Origin: a virus
Lineage: Duplodnaviria > Caudoviricetes
Direction: 5' to 3' (one strand)
IMG/VR virus record: IMGVR_UViG_3300038426_000029
Location: 1-64,000 of that record
DNA: 64,000 nt
A program made the position numbers and the translations under genes. The notes beneath the pieces are model-generated. The model ran no database searches. It worked only from the letters and a program-made list of their open reading frames with translations, and was not told the origin of the DNA. Positions 11,426-40,872 of the stretch are shown in pieces (the stretch's first letter is position 1; each line of letters begins with the position of its first letter).

Positions 11426-12388
11426 ATGTCCGAAAACATAAAACTAGTCGATAAATACAAACCACAACATTGGGAAGATATTGTTGGACAAACTAGGATT
11501 GTTACTCAGGTAAAAGCCATTGTGGATAAAAAAGGACCATACCCACACTTTTTGTTTGTTGGTCCTGCTGGTTCTGGTAAAACTTCTTTAGCAGAAATAT
11601 TTGCTAAAGAAACAGGATATGATGTTCACGAATTTAACGGTTCTGACGATAGAACACTTGTTTTCATTAGAGATAAAATCAAGGCACTTTCACAATTTGC
11701 TGGTAGGAGAATTATTATTCTAGATGAAGCCGATATGTTGATTCAACCAGCACAGATGGCTATGAAGAGGATAATGGAAACCACAGATGCCATATACATA
11801 CTCTGTGCTAATGATGAATTTAAAATTGAGGATGCTATCAAAAGCAGGTGTGCAATTTTCCGTTTCCCAAGGTTGACTGATAGTGTTGTTGAAGCTAAAA
11901 TTGTTGATATTATTAAAAAAGAAGGAATTGGCTTTGTTGATGACGAAAACCAAACTGTTATGAGAGGTCTGGGTACACTTGTCAAAAATGCCAAGGGAGA
12001 TTTACGAACAGCACTCAACGATCTTGAAACTGTTATAGATGTCAATAAACAAATAACACCTGAGTCAATAATGCTTGTTGGTGGAACCACAGGACTTGCT
12101 GTTTTGGCTATGGTTAAAGCACTTGAGGGTGATTTCAACACAGCCAAGGAAATGATCGAAAAGGCATATGTTGAAGGAAAATACGATCCAAGAAATATTT
12201 GTAGGGAGTTATATAGTGCTATACCAAATTTGAATGTTGAGTTAGAAATAAAGATTAGGATGTTCGAGAAGCTGGGAGAAGTTGAACACAACCTAAATGA
12301 TGGTGGTGATCCAATAATTCAATTGGTCACATATATATCTTTTATATGGTTAATCCCACATGCTACGGGTTGCCCACTTCTCAAGTAG
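11426..12388 (+). CDS. rfcS: Replication factor C small subunit
   Basis: DKYKP..WEDIVGQ, HFLFVGPAGSGKT, IIILDEAD, SRC motif. Confidence 0.93.
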   Translation: MSENIKLVDKYKPQHWEDIVGQTRIVTQVKAIVDKKGPYPHFLFVGPAGSGKTSLAEIFAKETGYDVHEFNGSDDRTLVFIRDKIKALSQFAGRRIIILDEADMLIQPAQMAMKRIMETTDAIYILCANDEFKIEDAIKSRCAIFRFPRLTDSVVEAKIVDIIKKEGIGFVDDENQTVMRGLGTLVKNAKGDLRTALNDLETVIDVNKQITPESIMLVGGTTGLAVLAMVKALEGDFNTAKEMIEKAYVEGKYDPRNICRELYSAIPNLNVELEIKIRMFEKLGEVEHNLNDGGDPIIQLVTYISFIWLIPHATGCPLLK

Positions 12389-13544: not shown

Positions 13545-13760
13545 ATGGGTGTATATCATAAATGTGAACATTGTAATAGAACCCTAACAGATATGGATTC
13601 CATGACTGTCGGTTATGGTCCAGTTTGTTATAAAAAGTTATTTGGTATAGCACTAAAAAGAACACAAGCTAACAAAACAAAAACTATATACAAAACAACA
13701 AAAAAGATGAAAGATTTGTTGGAAATGGAGAATTTAGATGAGGTTTTTATAGATGTTTGA
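13545..13760 (+). CDS. DUF6011-like Zn-binding protein
   Basis: CEHCNRTLTD.DS...GYGPVC motif; ATG 13545 follows a GGAG RBS. Confidence 0.75.
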   Translation: MGVYHKCEHCNRTLTDMDSMTVGYGPVCYKKLFGIALKRTQANKTKTIYKTTKKMKDLLEMENLDEVFIDV

Positions 13761-14613
13761 ACCAAAAAAAATTAGTGATTTATTGGGTAATCCAACAGCA
13801 CTTAAAAAATTAGAGGAACAGATCAAAGACGGTGTTCCAACACTTATTGTTGGTCCACCCGGAATTGGTAAAACCACAGGTGTAAATGTTATTGCAAAAG
13901 AGTTAGGATATGAAGTCATGGGGCTTAATGCTAGTGACGATAGACAGGCTGGAACAGATGATGAACCAAGCGAACTTAGAAAGTTGCTTTGGAAATCTCA
14001 AATGAATAGCCCATTTGGTGAGAAATATCTTATATTTTTAGATGAAGTTGATGGTATGGGTAGCACTCAAATGGATGGTGTATCGAGTTGGGATATTGTT
14101 AAGGATATAATTCAAGAAAGCGTTTATCCTGTTATTCTAGCTTGTAACGATGACTATAAGGTTCCAGAAGGCGTACAAAAACTTCTAATAAAAATTGATT
14201 TCAGACAGGTTGATTCCAGAACAGTAACAAAAATTGTACAGAAGTTTGCTAAGGATATGGGTGTTTCACCAGACTTATCAAAAATTGGTGGTGATATTAG
14301 ATCAGGAATTTCCCTTCTTTTTGGTGGTGAAGGTTATGTTCCATCTGGTGATTTCCTATATATTCAGAAGTTTTTTGCTGAAGGAACAGAGATTGAACGA
14401 GAGAAATATCCTTGGATTTTAGATAACATACCTGAATTTTACAAGGGTTATGATATGTATTTGGCATATAAAGTACTATCATTAACCAGATATAGCCCAA
14501 GGGCACTAGATATGCTGAGAAAGGGCAAGATAGGAAGGGTAAAGTTCCCTACTTATTACCTAGTTAGGAAGAAAGATAAAAAGGTGGAGAAAGAGGAAAA
14601 TGGTCAAGTTTAG
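13753..14613 (+). CDS. rfcL: Short replication factor C large subunit-like ATPase
   Basis: PKKISDLLGN, GPPGIGKTT, LNASDDR, IFLDEVDG; only 286 aa. Confidence 0.85.
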   Translation: MFEPKKISDLLGNPTALKKLEEQIKDGVPTLIVGPPGIGKTTGVNVIAKELGYEVMGLNASDDRQAGTDDEPSELRKLLWKSQMNSPFGEKYLIFLDEVDGMGSTQMDGVSSWDIVKDIIQESVYPVILACNDDYKVPEGVQKLLIKIDFRQVDSRTVTKIVQKFAKDMGVSPDLSKIGGDIRSGISLLFGGEGYVPSGDFLYIQKFFAEGTEIEREKYPWILDNIPEFYKGYDMYLAYKVLSLTRYSPRALDMLRKGKIGRVKFPTYYLVRKKDKKVEKEENGQV

Positions 14614-29582: not shown

Positions 29583-31154
29583 CTATCCATCTATACTTGT
29601 TCCTATCCATTTATAAATCTTTATGTTTTTATACTCTTCAACTAATTTCCAATCAGGTAAGTCTTTCCAAATATCTGGAATTGGTTGATTGATTTGAACT
29701 GTTCTATACTTGGTTTTGAAGAAAAAGAAAGCAGATTTCTCCATTCTAGGACTCAGAATGATATATTTAAAAAATGGTGGTATTATCTCTACGGTTGTGG
29801 TTTCATTTGCATTTATTGTTGTTTTTGTCGTAGATACAGTTAAGTTCAAATTTACTTCAATTCTTTGATTTTCTATAGTATAAAAACTATCCTGTAGCAA
29901 CGGTAATCTGAGGTCTGAAGAGTAAAATATAAGTGAATTTTTCATTGGTACATCTGTCCACCATTCGGTAAAATTATATGTATTGTGTATAATTGAACTG
30001 TGTCCTAAGAATTCATATTCATCCGATGTCATTGCATTATTAATATATAACATAGTATTAGCACCATTTATAGATGTTAATATCATAGTTGTAATAATAA
30101 TTAATATAAAAATAATAGACAATATTGTTTTAAATTTGCTAATTAGTAAAGAAGTAAAGAATGATAATGGTAAAATAAAATAAAAAATTACTCTTGTTGG
30201 TGCAATTAGATATGGTGAATAGAATAACCAACTAACGACAAATAATAAAATACAACCAAATAAATATTCAAACATAATATTTATCTTTGGTTTATATAAC
30301 AATATTGATATTAATGATAATATAACCATAACAACACTACCAAAGAAAATAGACACACCAAGTAATAAATCAGATATGGAGTATAAAAATATATTAGATA
30401 ATTTGAATTGTGATGACATTGAACTAGGTAGAATAAAATATGTCATTACTTGATGTGGATTTAATGATGAAATCAAAAATAAAACAACCAGACATAACAC
30501 AACGGCTACATAAACTTTGTGTCTATAGTTTCCATTTAAGAAAATATCTAACAATACCAAGCCTATAATAAAAACTGCTGGTAATATGTGTGTATACATT
30601 GATATTACTATAAACACTAAGAAACCACAAAAGAATTTTATTTTGCTGTTTCTTTGTTCTTTATCTTTTGTATTTAAATACATATAAAGAGCAAGCATTG
30701 CAAAAAAGAAACCTAACGATTCTGTACTATTGAATATGCTCGATCTATATATCATATTTTCACTAAATGTCCATAGTGTTGTTGCTACAAGTGCTACTTT
30801 CTGGGTTGATATTTTTCTTAGTATATAATAAATAGGAATTATTGTCAATCCACCGATGATTGGGTTTACATATTGGCATAAAATTGTTGGATCAATGTGT
30901 GTTATTAAGTAGATAAAATATACTAAGTATTGTTCTAAAACAGGTTGATAACCAAGGCGAAAGGTTGTACCTGTTTTTATTAAGTCAAGAATTGTGTATA
31001 CATATCCTTCCTCTTCAATAATCCAACGTGGTATGAGATAAAGATGCGGATATGATCTGTAAAAAATACCTGCAATAGATAATATAAATAGCCATATGCT
31101 AGTTTTGCTGATTTTAGCCTTAGTCTCTTCTAAAAAACAAAACATTTTGTTCAT
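29583..31154 (-). CDS. Multi-pass membrane protein, putative GT-C (PMT/OST-like) glycosyltransferase
   Basis: About 11-12 TM helices, acidic EEEG after TM1, soluble C-terminal domain ending in WKLV.E..N.KIY. Confidence 0.55.
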   Translation of the reverse strand: MNKMFCFLEETKAKISKTSIWLFILSIAGIFYRSYPHLYLIPRWIIEEEGYVYTILDLIKTGTTFRLGYQPVLEQYLVYFIYLITHIDPTILCQYVNPIIGGLTIIPIYYILRKISTQKVALVATTLWTFSENMIYRSSIFNSTESLGFFFAMLALYMYLNTKDKEQRNSKIKFFCGFLVFIVISMYTHILPAVFIIGLVLLDIFLNGNYRHKVYVAVVLCLVVLFLISSLNPHQVMTYFILPSSMSSQFKLSNIFLYSISDLLLGVSIFFGSVVMVILSLISILLYKPKINIMFEYLFGCILLFVVSWLFYSPYLIAPTRVIFYFILPLSFFTSLLISKFKTILSIIFILIIITTMILTSINGANTMLYINNAMTSDEYEFLGHSSIIHNTYNFTEWWTDVPMKNSLIFYSSDLRLPLLQDSFYTIENQRIEVNLNLTVSTTKTTINANETTTVEIIPPFFKYIILSPRMEKSAFFFFKTKYRTVQINQPIPDIWKDLPDWKLVEEYKNIKIYKWIGTSIDG

Positions 31155-35010: not shown

Positions 35011-35964
35011 TTATAAACTCTCCCAAGCTGGGGGGATTTTTGCATCTGGTTCCACATAATACTTGAAAAGTTCATCCAACACAGTTGAGACATTCTTCTC
35101 TGGTTTCCAGCCGAAACGTTTGTATATTTTTTCAATATTTAGCGTAGATTCTAGCACATATCCATTTGGTGCAAACGGTGTCTTGGAATAATCAAGTTTA
35201 TAACCATATTTTGTGGCTGTCCTTGCAACAATTTCCGCTATTGTCGAACCACTTACCTCCATCCCCATCGAGACATTATATGTATTCTCAAACGGTTCAC
35301 AGGTCTGCATGTATATGGCAGATATTAATGCCCTACAAATATCATGTACGGATATTAAATCTCTATAGGCTTTTCCGTTGTTGAATAGTTCTATTGGAAT
35401 ACCATGCACAGCACAGTAAACAAGCCTATTAGGGAAGGTTCTGCCTCTTATTCCAATAACCGTTCCGAATCTATAGATCACATACTCTATACCAGACTTC
35501 CTAATTTCCTCTTCACAAACCCACTTTGAATAGCCATACGGACTTGAGATTTGAATGGGATGTATCTCTCTCATTCTCCTGCCTTGACCATATATATTAG
35601 CCGAAGAGGAAAATATAATTTTCTCTGGTCGAATTTTTGAAAGAACGTTATATGTTGCAACCGTGTTATTATAGAAGCAATTATCTGCCTCTGCTAACCA
35701 GCCCTGATCACCCTTGACTTTTGACCAAGGAGAACCTGCCAAATGAATAACAGCCCTTGGTTTCTCATTTATATATTTGAATTCTGGATCGGCTAAATCT
35801 TCCACAATATATTCAACATCATCGAACATTTTGTCAGGTGGTCTTTTGTCAATAGATATTATTTTAACATCATAGTATTTTTTATATTTCTCAACCAACA
35901 TATCCAAGAGGTTTGACCCGATAAATCCTGATCCACCCGTAACAATTAAAGTAAAGTCGGTCAT
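35011..35964 (-). CDS. NAD-dependent nucleotide-sugar epimerase/dehydratase
   Basis: IVTGGSGFIG, HLAG, SSSANIYG, SPYGYSK. Confidence 0.9.
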   Translation of the reverse strand: MTDFTLIVTGGSGFIGSNLLDMLVEKYKKYYDVKIISIDKRPPDKMFDDVEYIVEDLADPEFKYINEKPRAVIHLAGSPWSKVKGDQGWLAEADNCFYNNTVATYNVLSKIRPEKIIFSSSANIYGQGRRMREIHPIQISSPYGYSKWVCEEEIRKSGIEYVIYRFGTVIGIRGRTFPNRLVYCAVHGIPIELFNNGKAYRDLISVHDICRALISAIYMQTCEPFENTYNVSMGMEVSGSTIAEIVARTATKYGYKLDYSKTPFAPNGYVLESTLNIEKIYKRFGWKPEKNVSTVLDELFKYYVEPDAKIPPAWESL

Positions 35965-36209
35965 TTGATGTTTAATTCCTTAAAACCAATTTTTTCACAA
36001 AACTTAAATAAAATATAACCATACATAAAAATGAATGGTATTGAAATAAACCCGCAAACAATTTCAACAGCATCATTAGTTATAAGCATTGTATTAAATA
36101 ATTCTTGCGATCCAACAAACAATCCACCCAAAAAAGATACCGTTAATATAGCAAAGGCAGTAGAAACAGTTATAAATAAAATAAAATAAAAATCGTTAAT
36201 TTTGCTCAT
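35961..36209 (-). CDS. Small two-TM protein
   Basis: 82 aa; ATGA overlaps. Confidence 0.6.
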   Translation of the reverse strand: MSKINDFYFILFITVSTAFAILTVSFLGGLFVGSQELFNTMLITNDAVEIVCGFISIPFIFMYGYILFKFCEKIGFKELNIK

Positions 36210-37405
36210 TTGACATTCAACTCTTTCACTAATCTACGTTGCATACTGATTATAAATGTTATGGTTCCCAGCATCAGAGAAGCTATAAAACTTATACCAC
36301 AGATGAGTGCCATAGATATATTGAGTTTGAATGTTTCGAGATATAAACCTGTCGTGTATAGACCAGAGAATAATGATGTTAAGAATAAGATGGCTGTTGG
36401 TATTCCAATATATGTGTAGGGTCTATTCCATACAGCACCCCAGAATATTATCTCAATGAGTGTCAGACCCTGATATATAAATTTTGTGGGATGTTCTGGT
36501 TTGTTATAAGTGACATTACATGGCACATCTGTTATGTTTAAACCCTTCTCTCTTGCCCTATTAATTATCTCAAGGGATGCTTCCATTCCATCTGCTGTCA
36601 AATGTAGCCTATCAATTGCAAATTTATTATATGCCCTGAAACCGCACTGAGTATCACCAATACCATAGATCATATTAATTCCCTGAACAACAACTCTTCT
36701 ATGGTAAGGCATATTATTTGTTACTGAAAACCTATTACCAACAACAATATCTGAATCTTGAATTTTATCTAAAAACTTTGGAATTTCATTAGGATCATGC
36801 TGTCCATCTCCATCAAGCGTAATGAGGACATCATAATCATTAACCTTAGCATATTTGAAGATTTCTTGTAAAGCTCTGCCATATCCAGACCAATCAAATT
36901 CTAGAACCTTAGCACCATAAGATTTTGCAAGAAAAGCTGTTCCATCTGTTGATCCATTGGAAACAACAAGAACATCACCATATTTCTTGGACTCTTTTAC
37001 TACATCTTTAATGTTATCCTGTTCATTATATGCAGGAATACCAATCAGGATATTATGACCTAATGGAAACTTCACTTTTAGTGTATTATCTAATAGTGCC
37101 ATTTCCTCTGGATCGGTTGATTCTGCATCACAGGCAACAAAATGATAGTGTTCTGGTATTGAGCAGTGTGTAGAATCACAGAAATACCAAGGCTTGATAC
37201 CGACATACTTGTTCATGTATTCTATGAGCTTGGCTTTGACACGTATCTGTTCTTCAAAAGTAGGTTTATCAGAGTGTCTAATTATGCTGGACATCAGACG
37301 AATTTTATGCCCTTTCTTATCTTTAGTTTCCACAACATATACTAATTCATCTGTGTAAATAAGTTTTTCTCGTTGAGGAATAGTACAGAGTGAACATTCA
37401 GACAT
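36206..37405 (-). CDS. HIT-like domain fused to a DPM1-like GT2 (polyprenol-phosphate glycosyltransferase) with C-terminal TM helices
   Basis: N-terminal CSLC..LIYTDELV..RH..EEQ..SIPEHYHF; then IGIPAYNE, TLDGDGQHDP, DTQCGFRAY. Confidence 0.85.
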   Translation of the reverse strand: MSECSLCTIPQREKLIYTDELVYVVETKDKKGHKIRLMSSIIRHSDKPTFEEQIRVKAKLIEYMNKYVGIKPWYFCDSTHCSIPEHYHFVACDAESTDPEEMALLDNTLKVKFPLGHNILIGIPAYNEQDNIKDVVKESKKYGDVLVVSNGSTDGTAFLAKSYGAKVLEFDWSGYGRALQEIFKYAKVNDYDVLITLDGDGQHDPNEIPKFLDKIQDSDIVVGNRFSVTNNMPYHRRVVVQGINMIYGIGDTQCGFRAYNKFAIDRLHLTADGMEASLEIINRAREKGLNITDVPCNVTYNKPEHPTKFIYQGLTLIEIIFWGAVWNRPYTYIGIPTAILFLTSLFSGLYTTGLYLETFKLNISMALICGISFIASLMLGTITFIISMQRRLVKELNVK

Positions 37406-37406
37406 T

Positions 37407-37667
37407 TTAATTACCTCTCAAAATTGAATTCTTTGAGAAATAATCATCATATACCACCAAAATTATTGTATATAAAATCGTTATAATAAGAATTGTTTGT
37501 ATTATTGGGTTATAACTTAAAGCACACAGTGTCCTAGCAGGTTCGGTTTGTATCACAGCCGTTGTATAACCCATTGGACAAAAAACCATGAAACAAAAAA
37601 GAATAGAAATTACATCTACATAGACAGATATATGAAATATTTGTTTTTTGTCTATGTTGATTGACAT
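37407..37667 (-). CDS. Small two-TM protein
   Basis: 86 aa, hydrophobic. Confidence 0.55.
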   Translation of the reverse strand: MSINIDKKQIFHISVYVDVISILFCFMVFCPMGYTTAVIQTEPARTLCALSYNPIIQTILIITILYTIILVVYDDYFSKNSILRGN

Positions 37668-37673
37668 TTTATC

Positions 37674-38351
37674 TTACACAACTGGTTTTAAAGCTGTTTT
37701 CCATTTTTCAGTGAATTCTTTTACAGCTTCCTCTGTTTTGGGATGTTTGTACATCTCATTTAGGACTTTGTACGGAACTGTTACAATATCAGCACCGCTA
37801 TCCATACAGACCTGAACATCCTCTGGACTTCTGATACTTCCACAGATTAGGAGTGGTCTATCACCACTACCAAATCTCTGTAAATATTCGGCTGTTATTC
37901 TGATCTGTTCCTTTGCGTAATCAAAGTTCTTGAAATCAATCATTCTCCTGTAGAAAAGGGAGATATAATATGGTTCTGACTCAAGACCAATGATAGCCTG
38001 ATAAGCAGACATTAGACATGTTAGATTTACTGGAATATGTTTTCTTTTTAAAGCATTTATTAATTCTGATGTGCGAGTATCAATCATAGGTACTTTTACT
38101 ACTACCTTTTCCATACAACACATATAGTATTCTGTTGCTTCATCAACAAGTTTATCTATAGATAAAAATGGATCAATCAACTCAACAGATACATCATATA
38201 TATCATATTGACATATATCATGTATCATCTTCTGTATGTCTTTCACACCAGATTTTGCCATTAGACTTGGGTTGGTTGTAATACCATCACATAAACCAAG
38301 GCTAAGAATCTCATCTATCTCTTTCAAGTCTGCCGAATCTAAGTATAATAT
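37674..38351 (-). CDS. tal: Transaldolase/fructose-6-phosphate aldolase (TalC/Fsa family); probable ATA start
   Basis: GITTNPSL, VVVKVP (Schiff-base Lys), VNLT, SIRS; frame extends to ILYLDSAD, covering the conserved Asp, with GGAGG 10 nt upstream. Confidence 0.9.
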   Translation of the reverse strand: MLYLDSADLKEIDEILSLGLCDGITTNPSLMAKSGVKDIQKMIHDICQYDIYDVSVELIDPFLSIDKLVDEATEYYMCCMEKVVVKVPMIDTRTSELINALKRKHIPVNLTCLMSAYQAIIGLESEPYYISLFYRRMIDFKNFDYAKEQIRITAEYLQRFGSGDRPLLICGSIRSPEDVQVCMDSGADIVTVPYKVLNEMYKHPKTEEAVKEFTEKWKTALKPVV

Positions 38352-38746
38352 AGCCCAACATCCTCCATATACGTTTTTAACATTTCTTCATTTATCTCAG
38401 TCTTTTTGTTCAGTTTAGTAATCATATCTATAGCAGTTAGAACTGTTATTTTTTCGTGTCTAGCTAGATATAGTGCGACCACAAACGCTGAACGAGACTT
38501 ACCTTCACGACAATGAATTAGTATTCTCTTTCTTTTATTAACTTGTTCTCTAATCTTCTTCAAGACTAGATTATAGTGCTTAATAGGATTGTGACCATCC
38601 ACTAGATGGAACTTATAATCCTCAAATCCTGTATCACTTCCACCCACATTTATAACGAAACAAATATTATTACTTCTAAGATCGTCTAAAGTATATTTAT
38701 CGTTTCCTATAAATATATCTTCTGTTATTTTTGTTATCGACATCAT
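38339..38746 (-). CDS. Dual-specificity (Cys-based) phosphatase
   Basis: ILIHCREGKSRS (HCxxGxSRS) P-loop. Confidence 0.9.
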   Translation of the reverse strand: MMSITKITEDIFIGNDKYTLDDLRSNNICFVINVGGSDTGFEDYKFHLVDGHNPIKHYNLVLKKIREQVNKRKRILIHCREGKSRSAFVVALYLARHEKITVLTAIDMITKLNKKTEINEEMLKTYMEDVGLYYT

Positions 38747-39312
38747 GTTACCTTCAATACATTTATTTCCGATACTAATGCATGTGCTAAGACACTATGT
38801 ATTCCCTCAACTATATAAGGATTTCTTGTATCTACACAGAGTGAAATATCACATAACTCTTTTAAATTACCACCATTATTGCCTATAAAAGCATATCTAT
38901 AACCGTGCATAGATTTAAAATACTTTGCTAAATTAAACAAATTAGAACTCCACAACTCATCATTCGGACTCTTGCCACTTGAACCATTCACACTAGCCAT
39001 AATGAGAATGTCACCATTCTTGATCCTACCCTTGACAACGGAAGAGTAAACATCATCCCAACCATCATCATTTATCTTGGCTGTGAGGGAGGGGACATTA
39101 TCTGTTATGCAGATTGCTTGTATTCCAAGGTTTGTAAGGTCTGATGCTAAGTGACTCATCGTTGCTGACGAACCACCATTACCAACTAACCACACCGTAG
39201 CATTAAAACGGTGTGCCCTGATGAAAATTGCATTTGCAATATCTTTTATAAGAATTATATTCGTTTCTGGTAAATATTTTACAACTTCATCAATTACCTG
39301 TCTAGCTGTCAC
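38743..39312 (-). CDS. gmhA: Sedoheptulose-7-phosphate isomerase (SIS domain)
   Basis: LVGNGGSSATMSHLASDL, TDNVPSLTA..NDDG, VEGIHS. Confidence 0.88.
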   Translation of the reverse strand: MTARQVIDEVVKYLPETNIILIKDIANAIFIRAHRFNATVWLVGNGGSSATMSHLASDLTNLGIQAICITDNVPSLTAKINDDGWDDVYSSVVKGRIKNGDILIMASVNGSSGKSPNDELWSSNLFNLAKYFKSMHGYRYAFIGNNGGNLKELCDISLCVDTRNPYIVEGIHSVLAHALVSEINVLKVT

Positions 39313-40243
39313 CTGCTATCACCTCTGAGCCTGTATATGTCATTTTGAATGGAACATATGCCCTACTCTCGAAACAACCAGACTGAAGAATTTTTGTTCT
39401 TGTTTTATTATCTGGAATAACTACCATGAGGAATCCACCACTACCTGCACCGACTAATTTTCCACCAATAGCACCGTTTTGTCTCAATTCATCATAGAGA
39501 TTATCTATCTCTGGTGTAGACATCTCAGGTGAAATTGTCTTTTTAATTTTCCAGTGATCATCCATAAGTTCACCAAGTTTTTGATAATCCAGATTCATAA
39601 TAGCCTTAGCGGATTCTCTACCAATCTCTTCAATATCTTTAAGTTGCCGTGTGGATTCCTTTACAGTATTGAGTATCCTTCCCGAATCACGTATATTTGA
39701 GGTATAAATTAACATTAAGTGGTTTGTAAGTTCTGGTTCTGTGAGAATTATATCATCAACTTTACCATCCCTACCAATCATATAAACTCTAGTTCCACCA
39801 AAAGAAGCCGAATATTGATCCTGCTTTCCGATGGGTCTTGAAAGATTGTTCCGTTCAATGGAATATGCCTGTTCAGCCAAGTCGGTTTTACTTATTGTAG
39901 GATTAAATGCCTTTATTGCACCAACTGTGAAAGCACCAGAAGAACCTAATCCTGAACTTCCGGGTAGATCAGCAAATGTGATAAATTCCTGATTCTGCCA
40001 TATGTTAAACTTCTTGAATATCTCCCTGATTATTGGATGTTGAATATCTCGATTGCCTTTAGTAATTTCTAGATTTGAATAAACTATTCTAAGTTCTTTC
40101 TCAAACCTAGTGTTTATAGCTATATATATGTATTTGTCGATTGTAGCTGAAATCCAGAAACCACCGTTTTCTTGATAGTATTCTGGTATGTCTGTTCCAC
40201 CACCCCCAAGTGTTATACGTAAAGGTGTTCTTGTAATGATCAT
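39302..40243 (-). CDS. hddA: D-glycero-D-manno-heptose-7-phosphate kinase (GHMP family)
   Basis: TRTPLRITLGGGGTD, GSSGLGSSG, GKQDQY...FGG, GGKLVGAGSGGF. Confidence 0.9.
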   Translation of the reverse strand: MIITRTPLRITLGGGGTDIPEYYQENGGFWISATIDKYIYIAINTRFEKELRIVYSNLEITKGNRDIQHPIIREIFKKFNIWQNQEFITFADLPGSSGLGSSGAFTVGAIKAFNPTISKTDLAEQAYSIERNNLSRPIGKQDQYSASFGGTRVYMIGRDGKVDDIILTEPELTNHLMLIYTSNIRDSGRILNTVKESTRQLKDIEEIGRESAKAIMNLDYQKLGELMDDHWKIKKTISPEMSTPEIDNLYDELRQNGAIGGKLVGAGSGGFLMVVIPDNKTRTKILQSGCFESRAYVPFKMTYTGSEVIAGDS

Positions 40244-40872
40244 ACTAAACGACCACCACTGGTTTTTGGCACATGAAATATAAGTGAATAATGTGTTTGT
40301 AAATCATTCATCTTTTTCTTTTTACAATTTCCTACCTCAAAAATCATAACATCACCATTTTGCTTTTTTGCATAAACATCTACAGCATAACGATGTCCAT
40401 TAATTGTTATAAATCTCTCTGTTTCTACAACCATACCAAGAGAACGTATTTCGTTTGCTATTTTATTTTTTATAGTTTTATGTTCATCAGACTCTCTTGA
40501 AATATTAAGATATTTAGCATCATTTTCAAAATATATATGAAGTTTATTACTAATTGAATCTAATGTTTTTTGTGAATAGACATTTGTTTTTCCTTTATTC
40601 CAAGGAATGTGCCCTATATTAGCATCACTAATTCTTTTTACACTTTCATTATTATACTTAGTTTTACCAATATTCCAAACGGTTCGTTCACCATTTTCAT
40701 ATAATTTTTTTAAACTTTTAGATGTCTTTTCTTTTTGTTCTTCTGAAACACACATACCTTTCTTAGTTTTTGATATATTATCCCCCCATTCCCTGCTTCT
40801 GGGCTTTCCATTAAACGGATGTATGTGTACCTTGCCACACTTACGGCAGAGTCCATAGTTATGTCCTTTCAC
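40240..40872 (-). CDS. NUMOD3-repeat protein with C-terminal PD-(D/E)xK-like nuclease domain (copy 1)
   Basis: Basic NUMOD3-like repeats; C-terminal ERFITINGHRYAVDVYA...IFEVG shared with three paralogs. Confidence 0.7.
   Translation of the reverse strand: MKGHNYGLCRKCGKVHIHPFNGKPRSREWGDNISKTKKGMCVSEEQKEKTSKSLKKLYENGERTVWNIGKTKYNNESVKRISDANIGHIPWNKGKTNVYSQKTLDSISNKLHIYFENDAKYLNISRESDEHKTIKNKIANEIRSLGMVVETERFITINGHRYAVDVYAKKQNGDVMIFEVGNCKKKKMNDLQTHYSLIFHVPKTSGGRLV

Follow-up and report, generated by a model that had tools for sequence, protein, structure and literature searches.

A four-gene heptose operon

The DNA analysed here, called the window throughout, is a 64 kb stretch of a ~194-kb contig (positions 1 to 64,000 of IMG/VR record IMGVR_UViG_3300038426_000029, a virus of the Caudoviricetes), and at 37674-40243 on its minus strand it carries heptose genes, hddA and gmhA being followed by a gene for a dual-specificity phosphatase (DSP) and by the transaldolase gene tal. 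Heptose nucleotide sugars are bacterial surface building blocks as well as innate-immune agonists, and their biosynthesis is treated as a fixed four-enzyme scheme. The original prediction had read the run as four overlapping genes, and the families, the active-site residues and the overlapping junctions bore this out, with tal read from an ATA start. The four genes are as follows.

39302-40243, minus strand: hddA, a 313-aa GHMP kinase of the HddA (D-glycero-D-manno-heptose-7-phosphate 1-kinase) clade, assigned from NF049969, Protein Data Bank (PDB) matches and a local hidden Markov model (HMM)
38743-39312, minus strand: gmhA, a 189-aa SIS-fold sedoheptulose-7-phosphate isomerase, assigned from TIGR00441, PDB matches and motifs
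38339-38746, minus strand: a minimal, Cys-based DSP of 134-135 aa, the proposed heptose-1,7-bisphosphate 7-phosphatase, assigned from PF00782, motifs, fold and position
37674-38351, minus strand: tal, a short (TalC-type) transaldolase with a probable ATA start (listed as 37674-38327 with a TTG start), assigned from PF00923, 1vpx and a conserved N-terminus

The top family for hddA was the NCBIfam HddA model NF049969 (E 2.7e-37; 129 bits against a curated cut-off of 600 bits), and its best PDB matches were the heptose-7-phosphate kinases 4usk (WcbL), 4n3o and 3k85 (E 3e-33 to 1e-29), with other GHMP families (mevalonate kinases, fucokinases, galactokinases) reaching only ~1e-11, some twenty orders of magnitude behind. 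The GHMP motifs are present in the product, which our local HddA HMM found at 2e-98. Evaluating gmhA in the same way, we found a match to TIGR00441 (E 1e-15) that lies under the cut-off, twelve top PDB matches that are all phosphoheptose isomerases, and DiaA as the next, at only E 0.003. Its product carries the GNGGS, H, D, ND, SGKS, E and H motifs, and across the viral GmhA alignment GNGGS, H54, D58, N81-D82, S107, G110, S122, N124, E169 and H177 are invariant. Asp replaces the catalytic Glu65 of E. coli GmhA in every viral GmhA that we compared, those from loci with a canonical HddC (L043, L054) included. An 11-nt overlap joins the hddA and gmhA frames, and an ATGA is shared at the junction of gmhA with the DSP gene.

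For tal, PF00923 matched with 92 bits, the best PDB match was 1vpx (E 3e-26), and comparison with the Thermotoga maritima and Thermoplasma acidophilum transaldolases (Tal) gave E 1e-22 to 3e-26, with the Schiff-base Lys, Glu, Phe and Arg aligning with those of 1vpx and 3s0c. A Glu/Phe pair marks transaldolases and a Gln/Tyr pair marks fructose-6-phosphate (F6P) aldolase (FSA); the residues here are of the transaldolase type. Of 80 unrelated viral HddA loci that we gathered from IMG/VR with HddA as an independent starting point, 12 have tal in or beside the heptose genes, and in most of these it adjoins gmhA; carrying a source of sedoheptulose-7-phosphate along with heptose genes is therefore recurrent. 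The earlier proposal that the virus brings a transaldolase to supply its own precursor fits this distribution.

Translated from the listed TTG at 38327, Tal lacks its first strand and the catalytic N-terminal Asp. The frame is open upstream of this TTG, where it encodes I-L-Y-L-D-S-A-D and holds no ATG, GTG or TTG; the LYLD(S/T)A peptide is kept in relatives through synonymous and conservative changes, as is the ATA codon that precedes it, and a GGAGGA Shine-Dalgarno sequence lies 10 nt ahead of the ATA at 38351, with none ahead of the TTG. Because the conserved upstream peptide contains the catalytic Asp and a Shine-Dalgarno sequence precedes the ATA only, tal most likely starts at ATA 38351 and would overlap the DSP gene by 13 nt, an overlap that would also explain the strongly conserved C-terminus of the DSP. 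With this start, all three junctions in hddA/gmhA/DSP/tal overlap. In related contigs, gene callers trim 10-40 residues, the catalytic Asp among them, from the tal product. We also considered a DSP-Tal fusion produced by a -1 frameshift and set it aside in favour of the ATA start or reinitiation, there being no slippery heptamer.

These assignments bear on whether the substrate is a heptose at all. The module might instead make a different sugar, with diverged SIS, GHMP and Tal/FSA enzymes acting on another ketose phosphate (e.g., an aldolase-built one), a reading to which the placement of HddA, GmhA and Tal under curated equivalog cut-offs and the Asp of GmhA at the Glu65 position lend something. 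However, all three proteins match best to heptose enzymes or to transaldolase in particular, Tal carries the Glu/Phe and not the Gln/Tyr pair, and the same GmhA variant occurs in loci with a canonical HddC, such that we regard a different sugar as very improbable.

A gene for a NUMOD3-repeat nuclease (40240-40872, minus strand) lies directly upstream of hddA and overlaps its start, and NUMOD3 occupies the same place in three relatives (L082, L083, L084). In these, the hddA frame is intact at ~320 codons (2601-3566 in L082) and the deposited call, which comes directly after the nuclease gene, covers the last 137 residues only; the short calls may reflect another non-canonical start or a calling artefact.

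The phosphatase gene and the missing canonical enzymes

The DSP scored 48 bits against PF00782, above the cut-off of 33.5 bits, and has a P-loop of the C(X)5R type (HCREGKSRS) with the general-acid Asp aligned; D50, C79 and R85 are conserved. Its AlphaFold2 (AF2) model has a mean predicted local distance difference test score (pLDDT) of 92.4 and aligns with MKP-2 at Z 18.6, and the protein has no predicted membrane helix. Basic side chains at X1 and X4 of the P-loop, as in PTEN and PTPMT1, characterise pockets that take multiply anionic substrates; the loop here (C-R-E-G-K-S-R) is basic at both positions and by analogy gives a weak hint of a multiply anionic, non-protein substrate. Close homologues, at 58-84% identity, are known from metagenomes only. 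Used as a single query against IMG/VR, the protein (P0003) found no relative, and an alignment query found only one of the 80 loci (L036) and one unrelated DSP.

Assessing gene neighbourhoods revealed 14 related metagenomic loci with the order hddA-gmhA-DSP-tal (L081-84, L087-93, L103/104, L107). Every locus of the close homologues that is long enough (L081-84, L087-93) shows it, and L103/104 and L107 keep it though their DSP is only 18-35% identical; a further locus (L109) has hddA, a helix-turn-helix (HTH) gene, gmhA and the DSP gene in the order hddA-HTH-gmhA-DSP, with tal not detected. A second DSP clade, ~25% identical to the window DSP, adjoins hddA or gmhA in three other gene orders. 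In L036 (155 kb, 87% complete) a 150-aa DSP gene overlaps the end of hddA and is accompanied by gmhA, a short-chain dehydrogenase/reductase (SDR) gene and a gene for a nucleoside triphosphate (NTP)-transferase, with no GmhB-type HAD phosphatase anywhere in the whole record. L099/100 have the order SDR-hddA-DSP-x-rSAM-gmhA (rSAM, radical SAM), with the DSP gene overlapping hddA in L099, and L101 has hddA-gmhA-DSP-UGDH-cupin-NTP-transferase (UGDH, UDP-glucose dehydrogenase), with the DSP gene overlapping gmhA, while in L102 a second-clade DSP lies inside a sugar cluster with a PfkB kinase. No HAD gene is present in the second-clade loci, in the hddA-gmhA-DSP-tal loci or in L109.

We took five DSP loci of greater divergence, together with the DSP of HGTV-1, an archaeal virus, as controls, and none of these lies near heptose genes; a co-occurrence set of 50 HddA-bearing viral records (20-316 kb) yielded a single DSP above the cut-off, one that overlaps hddA. 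Because the order is kept, a second clade shares the association, the distant DSPs lack it and DSPs are rare in the 50 records, chance adjacency is very unlikely. Judged from gene neighbourhoods, the DSP has the pattern of a pathway enzyme, for which the GmhB step would be the only unfilled phosphatase role.

We searched for the canonical enzymes with HMMs made from viral HAD (GmhB-like), NTP_transferase and cytidylyltransferase-like genes, run on a six-frame translation of the window, and with a Pfam scan of 59 window open reading frames (ORFs). Neither found a HAD (GmhB), an NTP_transferase (HddC) or a cytidylyltransferase-like enzyme (HldE) in the window, in which the Pfam scan did find many glycosylation genes (SDRs, WecB, an aminotransferase, acetyltransferases, methyltransferases, radical SAM enzymes, family 2 glycosyltransferases (GT2s) and a GT-C protein). 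The 10 kb upstream of the window, read on a near-identical contig, hold PolB, TFIIB and small ORFs and no HAD or nucleotidyltransferase, and the flanks of the hddA-gmhA-DSP-tal relatives hold no gene of the gmhB or hddC type. The predicted absence of gmhB and hddC is thereby confirmed for the window, the 10 kb upstream and the relatives' flanks, and not for the whole contig. The further proposal that the Cys-based phosphatase replaces GmhB finds computational support in the kept DSP slot, the second clade and the lack of HAD genes in those loci; the search that had been suggested for it, for DSP genes next to gmhA or hddA in loci without gmhB, returned the 14 same-order loci and the second-clade loci.

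Two second-clade loci carry, downstream of the DSP gene, a PfkB kinase and a split thiamine pyrophosphate (TPP) enzyme (L036:12330-15199, L102:1820-4685; E1_dh/TPP_C of 194 aa, Transket_pyr of 178 aa). This enzyme may be a mini-transketolase or a two-carbon branching enzyme, and as a transketolase supplying sedoheptulose-7-phosphate it was dropped as evidence, since Pfam cannot separate it from E1-type or branching enzymes. Elsewhere among the viral loci we observed NTP_transferase-HAD fusions, that is HddC-GmhB fusions, of 353-437 aa (L001:7185-8498, L013:7015-8232, L017:11138-12199).

A HIT-fold domain fused to a glycosyltransferase

Downstream of tal, a single gene (36206-37405) combines two parts.

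37049-37405, minus strand: HIT-fold domain formed by the first 119 aa of the GT2 gene product, a candidate heptose-1-phosphate nucleotidyltransferase, assigned from AF2 fold, His alignment and fusions
36206-37048, minus strand: GT2 part of the same gene, a putative AglJ/DPM1/GtrB-like polyprenyl-phosphate glycosyltransferase, assigned from PF00535, family matches and a membrane helix

By sequence, the N-terminal domain had no Pfam match even at E 10 and no PDB match by phmmer, and its alignment found no match in IMG/VR. A full-database HMMER search returned 70 HIT-like representatives, which are either GT2 fusions of ~400 aa or standalone proteins of 110-150 aa (for two of the latter the contigs are too short to judge gene context), and the family shows invariant or near-invariant CxxC, K-G-H, R, H and H-W-H. 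The AF2 model (pLDDT 94.9) matched HINT/HIT structures in Foldseek at probability 1.0 and TM 0.55-0.59, and VIA-align placed it with HINT2 (Z 11.4 over 99 residues, root-mean-square deviation 2.6), aprataxin (Z 11.0) and Rv2613c (Z 10.0); sixteen structures matched at Z >= 8, every one of them a HIT protein. The nearest named ESM-Atlas clusters are likewise HIT, and four family members score weakly against DcpS_C, a model of the HIT clan. In a weak profile match to 2oik (E 0.015), H86 and H88 fall on the second (nucleophilic) and third His of the HIT triad. The GT2 part matched PF00535 with 69 bits and, all under curated cut-offs, AglJ (4e-31), PpgS (9e-28) and a Dol-P-hexose transferase (3e-19), and the gene product has one predicted C-terminal membrane helix (residues 359-377).

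In the window and seven relatives, a gene that encodes the HIT domain fused to GT2 lies downstream of tal. In L107 the HIT gene stands on its own between those for Tal and GT2, and in L109 it comes after the DSP gene. The operon of L103/104 is hddA-gmhA-DSP-tal::HIT, with the HIT domain joined to the C-terminal end of Tal (P0036) and no GT2. NTP- or CTP-type nucleotidyltransferases are present in most phage heptose loci; none of the HIT-bearing loci has one, and none of the loci with those enzymes has a HIT domain. A role for the pair in RNA-end processing, with the DSP as triphosphatase and the HIT domain as decapping enzyme, was set aside on account of the Tal and GT2 fusions and the sugar-operon context.

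One further locus (L108, 1-16378) combines an HddA-like GHMP kinase (6e-105) with two HIT-like genes, RmlC, an SDR, an aminotransferase and three B12-radical-SAM genes, and no GmhA, DSP, Tal or NTP-transferase was found in this sugar-tailoring cluster. As a single case, it fits a HIT enzyme that serves an anomeric kinase, with a DSP needed only where the substrate is 7-phosphorylated. The HIT family may activate other sugar-1-phosphates as well.

Proposed pathway, alternatives and known systems

On balance, we favour the reading that this conserved viral module makes activated D-glycero-D-manno-heptose, with the DSP at the GmhB step and the HIT domain at the HddC step. We give slightly less than an even chance to the broader proposal that both the phosphatase and the nucleotidyltransferase step are carried out by non-orthologous enzymes and that the module is self-sufficient from F6P and erythrose-4-phosphate (E4P) in a large archaeal-type virus lineage. 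What is already known comprises phage heptose genes, which are annotated (e.g., in Caulobacter phage Cr30), and nucleoside diphosphate (NDP)-heptose enzymes, which have been reported across kingdoms; what would be new is the DSP and HIT variant, for which comparative genomics give good support. The two roles are proposed from gene neighbourhood and modelled fold.

In the pathway that we infer, Tal would convert host F6P and E4P to sedoheptulose-7-phosphate, which GmhA would isomerise to heptose-7-phosphate and HddA would phosphorylate at C1 to heptose-1,7-bisphosphate. The DSP would then take off the 7-phosphate to leave heptose-1-phosphate, to which the HIT domain would transfer a nucleotidyl group by way of a His-NMP (nucleoside monophosphate) intermediate, from an NTP or, as in GalT, from an NDP-hexose. 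The fused GT2 would place the heptose on a polyprenyl phosphate, the probable lipid acceptor, for glycosylation at the membrane's outer face, and genes further downstream, for the SDR, a B12-radical-SAM enzyme and acyl- and methyltransferases, would provide for tailoring of the sugar.

With the same chemistry in another order, the HIT domain could nucleotidylate the bisphosphate first and the DSP then dephosphorylate NDP-heptose-7-phosphate, or heptose-1-phosphate could be used with no nucleotide activation; the sequence data do not fix the order, and the gene order (hddA, gmhA, DSP, tal, HIT) differs from the pathway order in any case. Known heptose nucleotidyltransferases nevertheless take heptose-1-phosphate, and GT2 enzymes of the DPM1/GtrB type take NDP-sugars, which leaves these variants only a small chance.

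A number of observations count against assigning the DSP and HIT domain to the heptose pathway. The curated NCBIfam cut-offs are not reached by the HddA, GmhA and GT2 scores. Most structures that resemble the DSP are protein phosphatases, its modelled fold by itself would not tell the substrate, and a search for a DSP fused to a heptose enzyme, itself weak evidence, found none. Most HIT proteins are hydrolases, and the consensus of the HIT family here (P-x-H-W-H) has Pro in place of the first triad His, ahead of an invariant second and third His, leaving the triad incomplete; the loci with a HIT domain may stem from a single virus lineage, in which case they would not count independently. A HAD or nucleotidyltransferase could also be encoded in the ~120 kb of the contig that lie outside the regions read. 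Finally, 53 of the 80 viral HddA loci lack a HAD within 10 kb, and because about two thirds are in this state a missing gmhB is common and a host enzyme could serve; the count of HAD genes in the DSP architectures (0 in ~7, against 23/80 loci) is not significant alone.

Several of these points feed a reading in which the virus runs only Tal, GmhA and HddA and relies on a host GmhB and nucleotidyltransferase, with the DSP travelling along and acting on phosphoproteins, on phospholipid or polyprenyl phosphate, or on RNA ends. Many viral HddA/GmhA loci, that of the cultured Caulobacter phage Cr30 included, have no HAD nearby, the nearest DSP structures are protein phosphatases, and archaeal viruses such as HGTV-1 have DSPs outside sugar loci. 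Set against this are the translational coupling of the DSP gene between gmhA and tal in a slot kept down to 18-35% identity, the second clade that adjoins hddA or gmhA in three other orders while DSPs are otherwise very rare in HddA viruses, and the lack of a membrane helix in the protein. We therefore consider a travelling DSP with a host GmhB unlikely, if the strongest of the competing explanations, and retain the DSP at the GmhB step.

Compared with the canonical GmhA/HddA/GmhB/HddC route, the module shares the adjacent GmhA-type isomerase and HddA-clade kinase and the logic that leads from bisphosphate to 1-phosphate to NDP-sugar, but has a DSP and a HIT-fold domain in place of the HAD GmhB and the NTP-transferase HddC, and a transaldolase built into the operon. 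HddA yields the alpha anomer, whereas E. coli makes its lipopolysaccharide by the beta route, and mutants in gmhB are leaky. Phage heptose clusters (Cr30 and the 80 IMG/VR loci) likewise have adjacent hddA and gmhA, often with an SDR epimerase and glycosyltransferases, whereas the complete ones use HAD and NTP_transferase or CTP_transf_like enzymes, sometimes as HddC-GmhB fusions; among the 80 loci, the HIT-like domain occurs in none and a DSP in L036 only. The window DSP shares its fold (Z 11-16) with DSP-fold phosphatases that have non-protein substrates (PTPMT1, PTEN, laforin/SEX4/LSF2, Siw14, a baculovirus RNA phosphatase), though at 134 aa it is much smaller and lacks both a carbohydrate-binding and a C2 domain. 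To our knowledge, no DSP acts in nucleotide-sugar biosynthesis, and our searches of the literature turned up neither a DSP nor a HIT enzyme described for heptose synthesis.

The HIT domain has the same fold as GalT, the Ap4A phosphorylase Rv2613c and GDP-L-galactose phosphorylase (3ano Z 10.0, GalT-like 1z84 Z 5.8, 1gup Z 4.5) and keeps their nucleophilic His, and its family also has the CxxC and two further invariant His; it differs from them in having no Pfam family, a length of ~115 aa, Pro at the first triad His and a shape nearer to HINT hydrolases than to GalT. The GT2 and its surroundings resemble the three-part polyprenyl-phosphate glycosylation systems, phage GtrA/GtrB/GtrC and ArnC/ArnE-F/ArnT, in combining a GT2 that may be a polyprenyl-phosphate sugar synthase, adjoining small membrane proteins and a GT-C protein, except that the sugar here would be a heptose made on the spot and the small membrane proteins have two helices each.

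If the proposal holds, the known substrates of cysteine phosphatases would be extended to a small sugar bisphosphate, acted on by a DSP-fold enzyme, and annotators could recognise heptose pathways which at present seem incomplete. The HIT fold would have a second role in sugar activation, independent of GalT, as a sugar-1-phosphate nucleotidyltransferase, and a first function could be assigned to a HIT-like family that lacks a Pfam model and is also found standalone in the metagenomic contigs searched. The large archaeal-type virus would then bring a complete precursor-to-lipid-carrier route for a rare sugar, presumably decorating its own or the host surface. Tal, GmhA, HddA, the DSP and the HIT domain are all small and soluble, so that direct in vitro testing is possible.

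Around the fused gene lie three further features.

37407-37667, minus strand: 86-aa protein with two predicted membrane helices (hydropathy scan), no Pfam match above cut-off
35961-36209, minus strand: 82-aa protein with two predicted membrane helices (hydropathy scan)
35011-35964, minus strand: SDR nucleotide-sugar epimerase/dehydratase (PF01370 99 bits; heptose_epim 3e-15; GalE 1.5e-22), in the same position in L081, L082 and L107

The 86-aa and 82-aa proteins, which flank the HIT::GT2 gene, may form a split flippase like ArnE/ArnF. Further along the minus strand, at 29583-31154, a membrane protein of 523 aa matches the STT3 N-terminus with 42 bits and lacks the WWDxG motif of AglB; on sequence grounds it is more likely a polyprenyl-phosphate-sugar GT-C transferase (GtrC/ArnT/PMT-like) than a true AglB oligosaccharyltransferase. 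The window also encodes two RFC-like clamp-loader AAA+ proteins (11426-12388 and 13753-14613, both plus strand), and a family-B DNA polymerase and a TFIIB homologue lie just upstream of it (L112:15684-19863), a gene content in keeping with what appears to be a large archaeal virus that encodes replication and transcription factors of its own.

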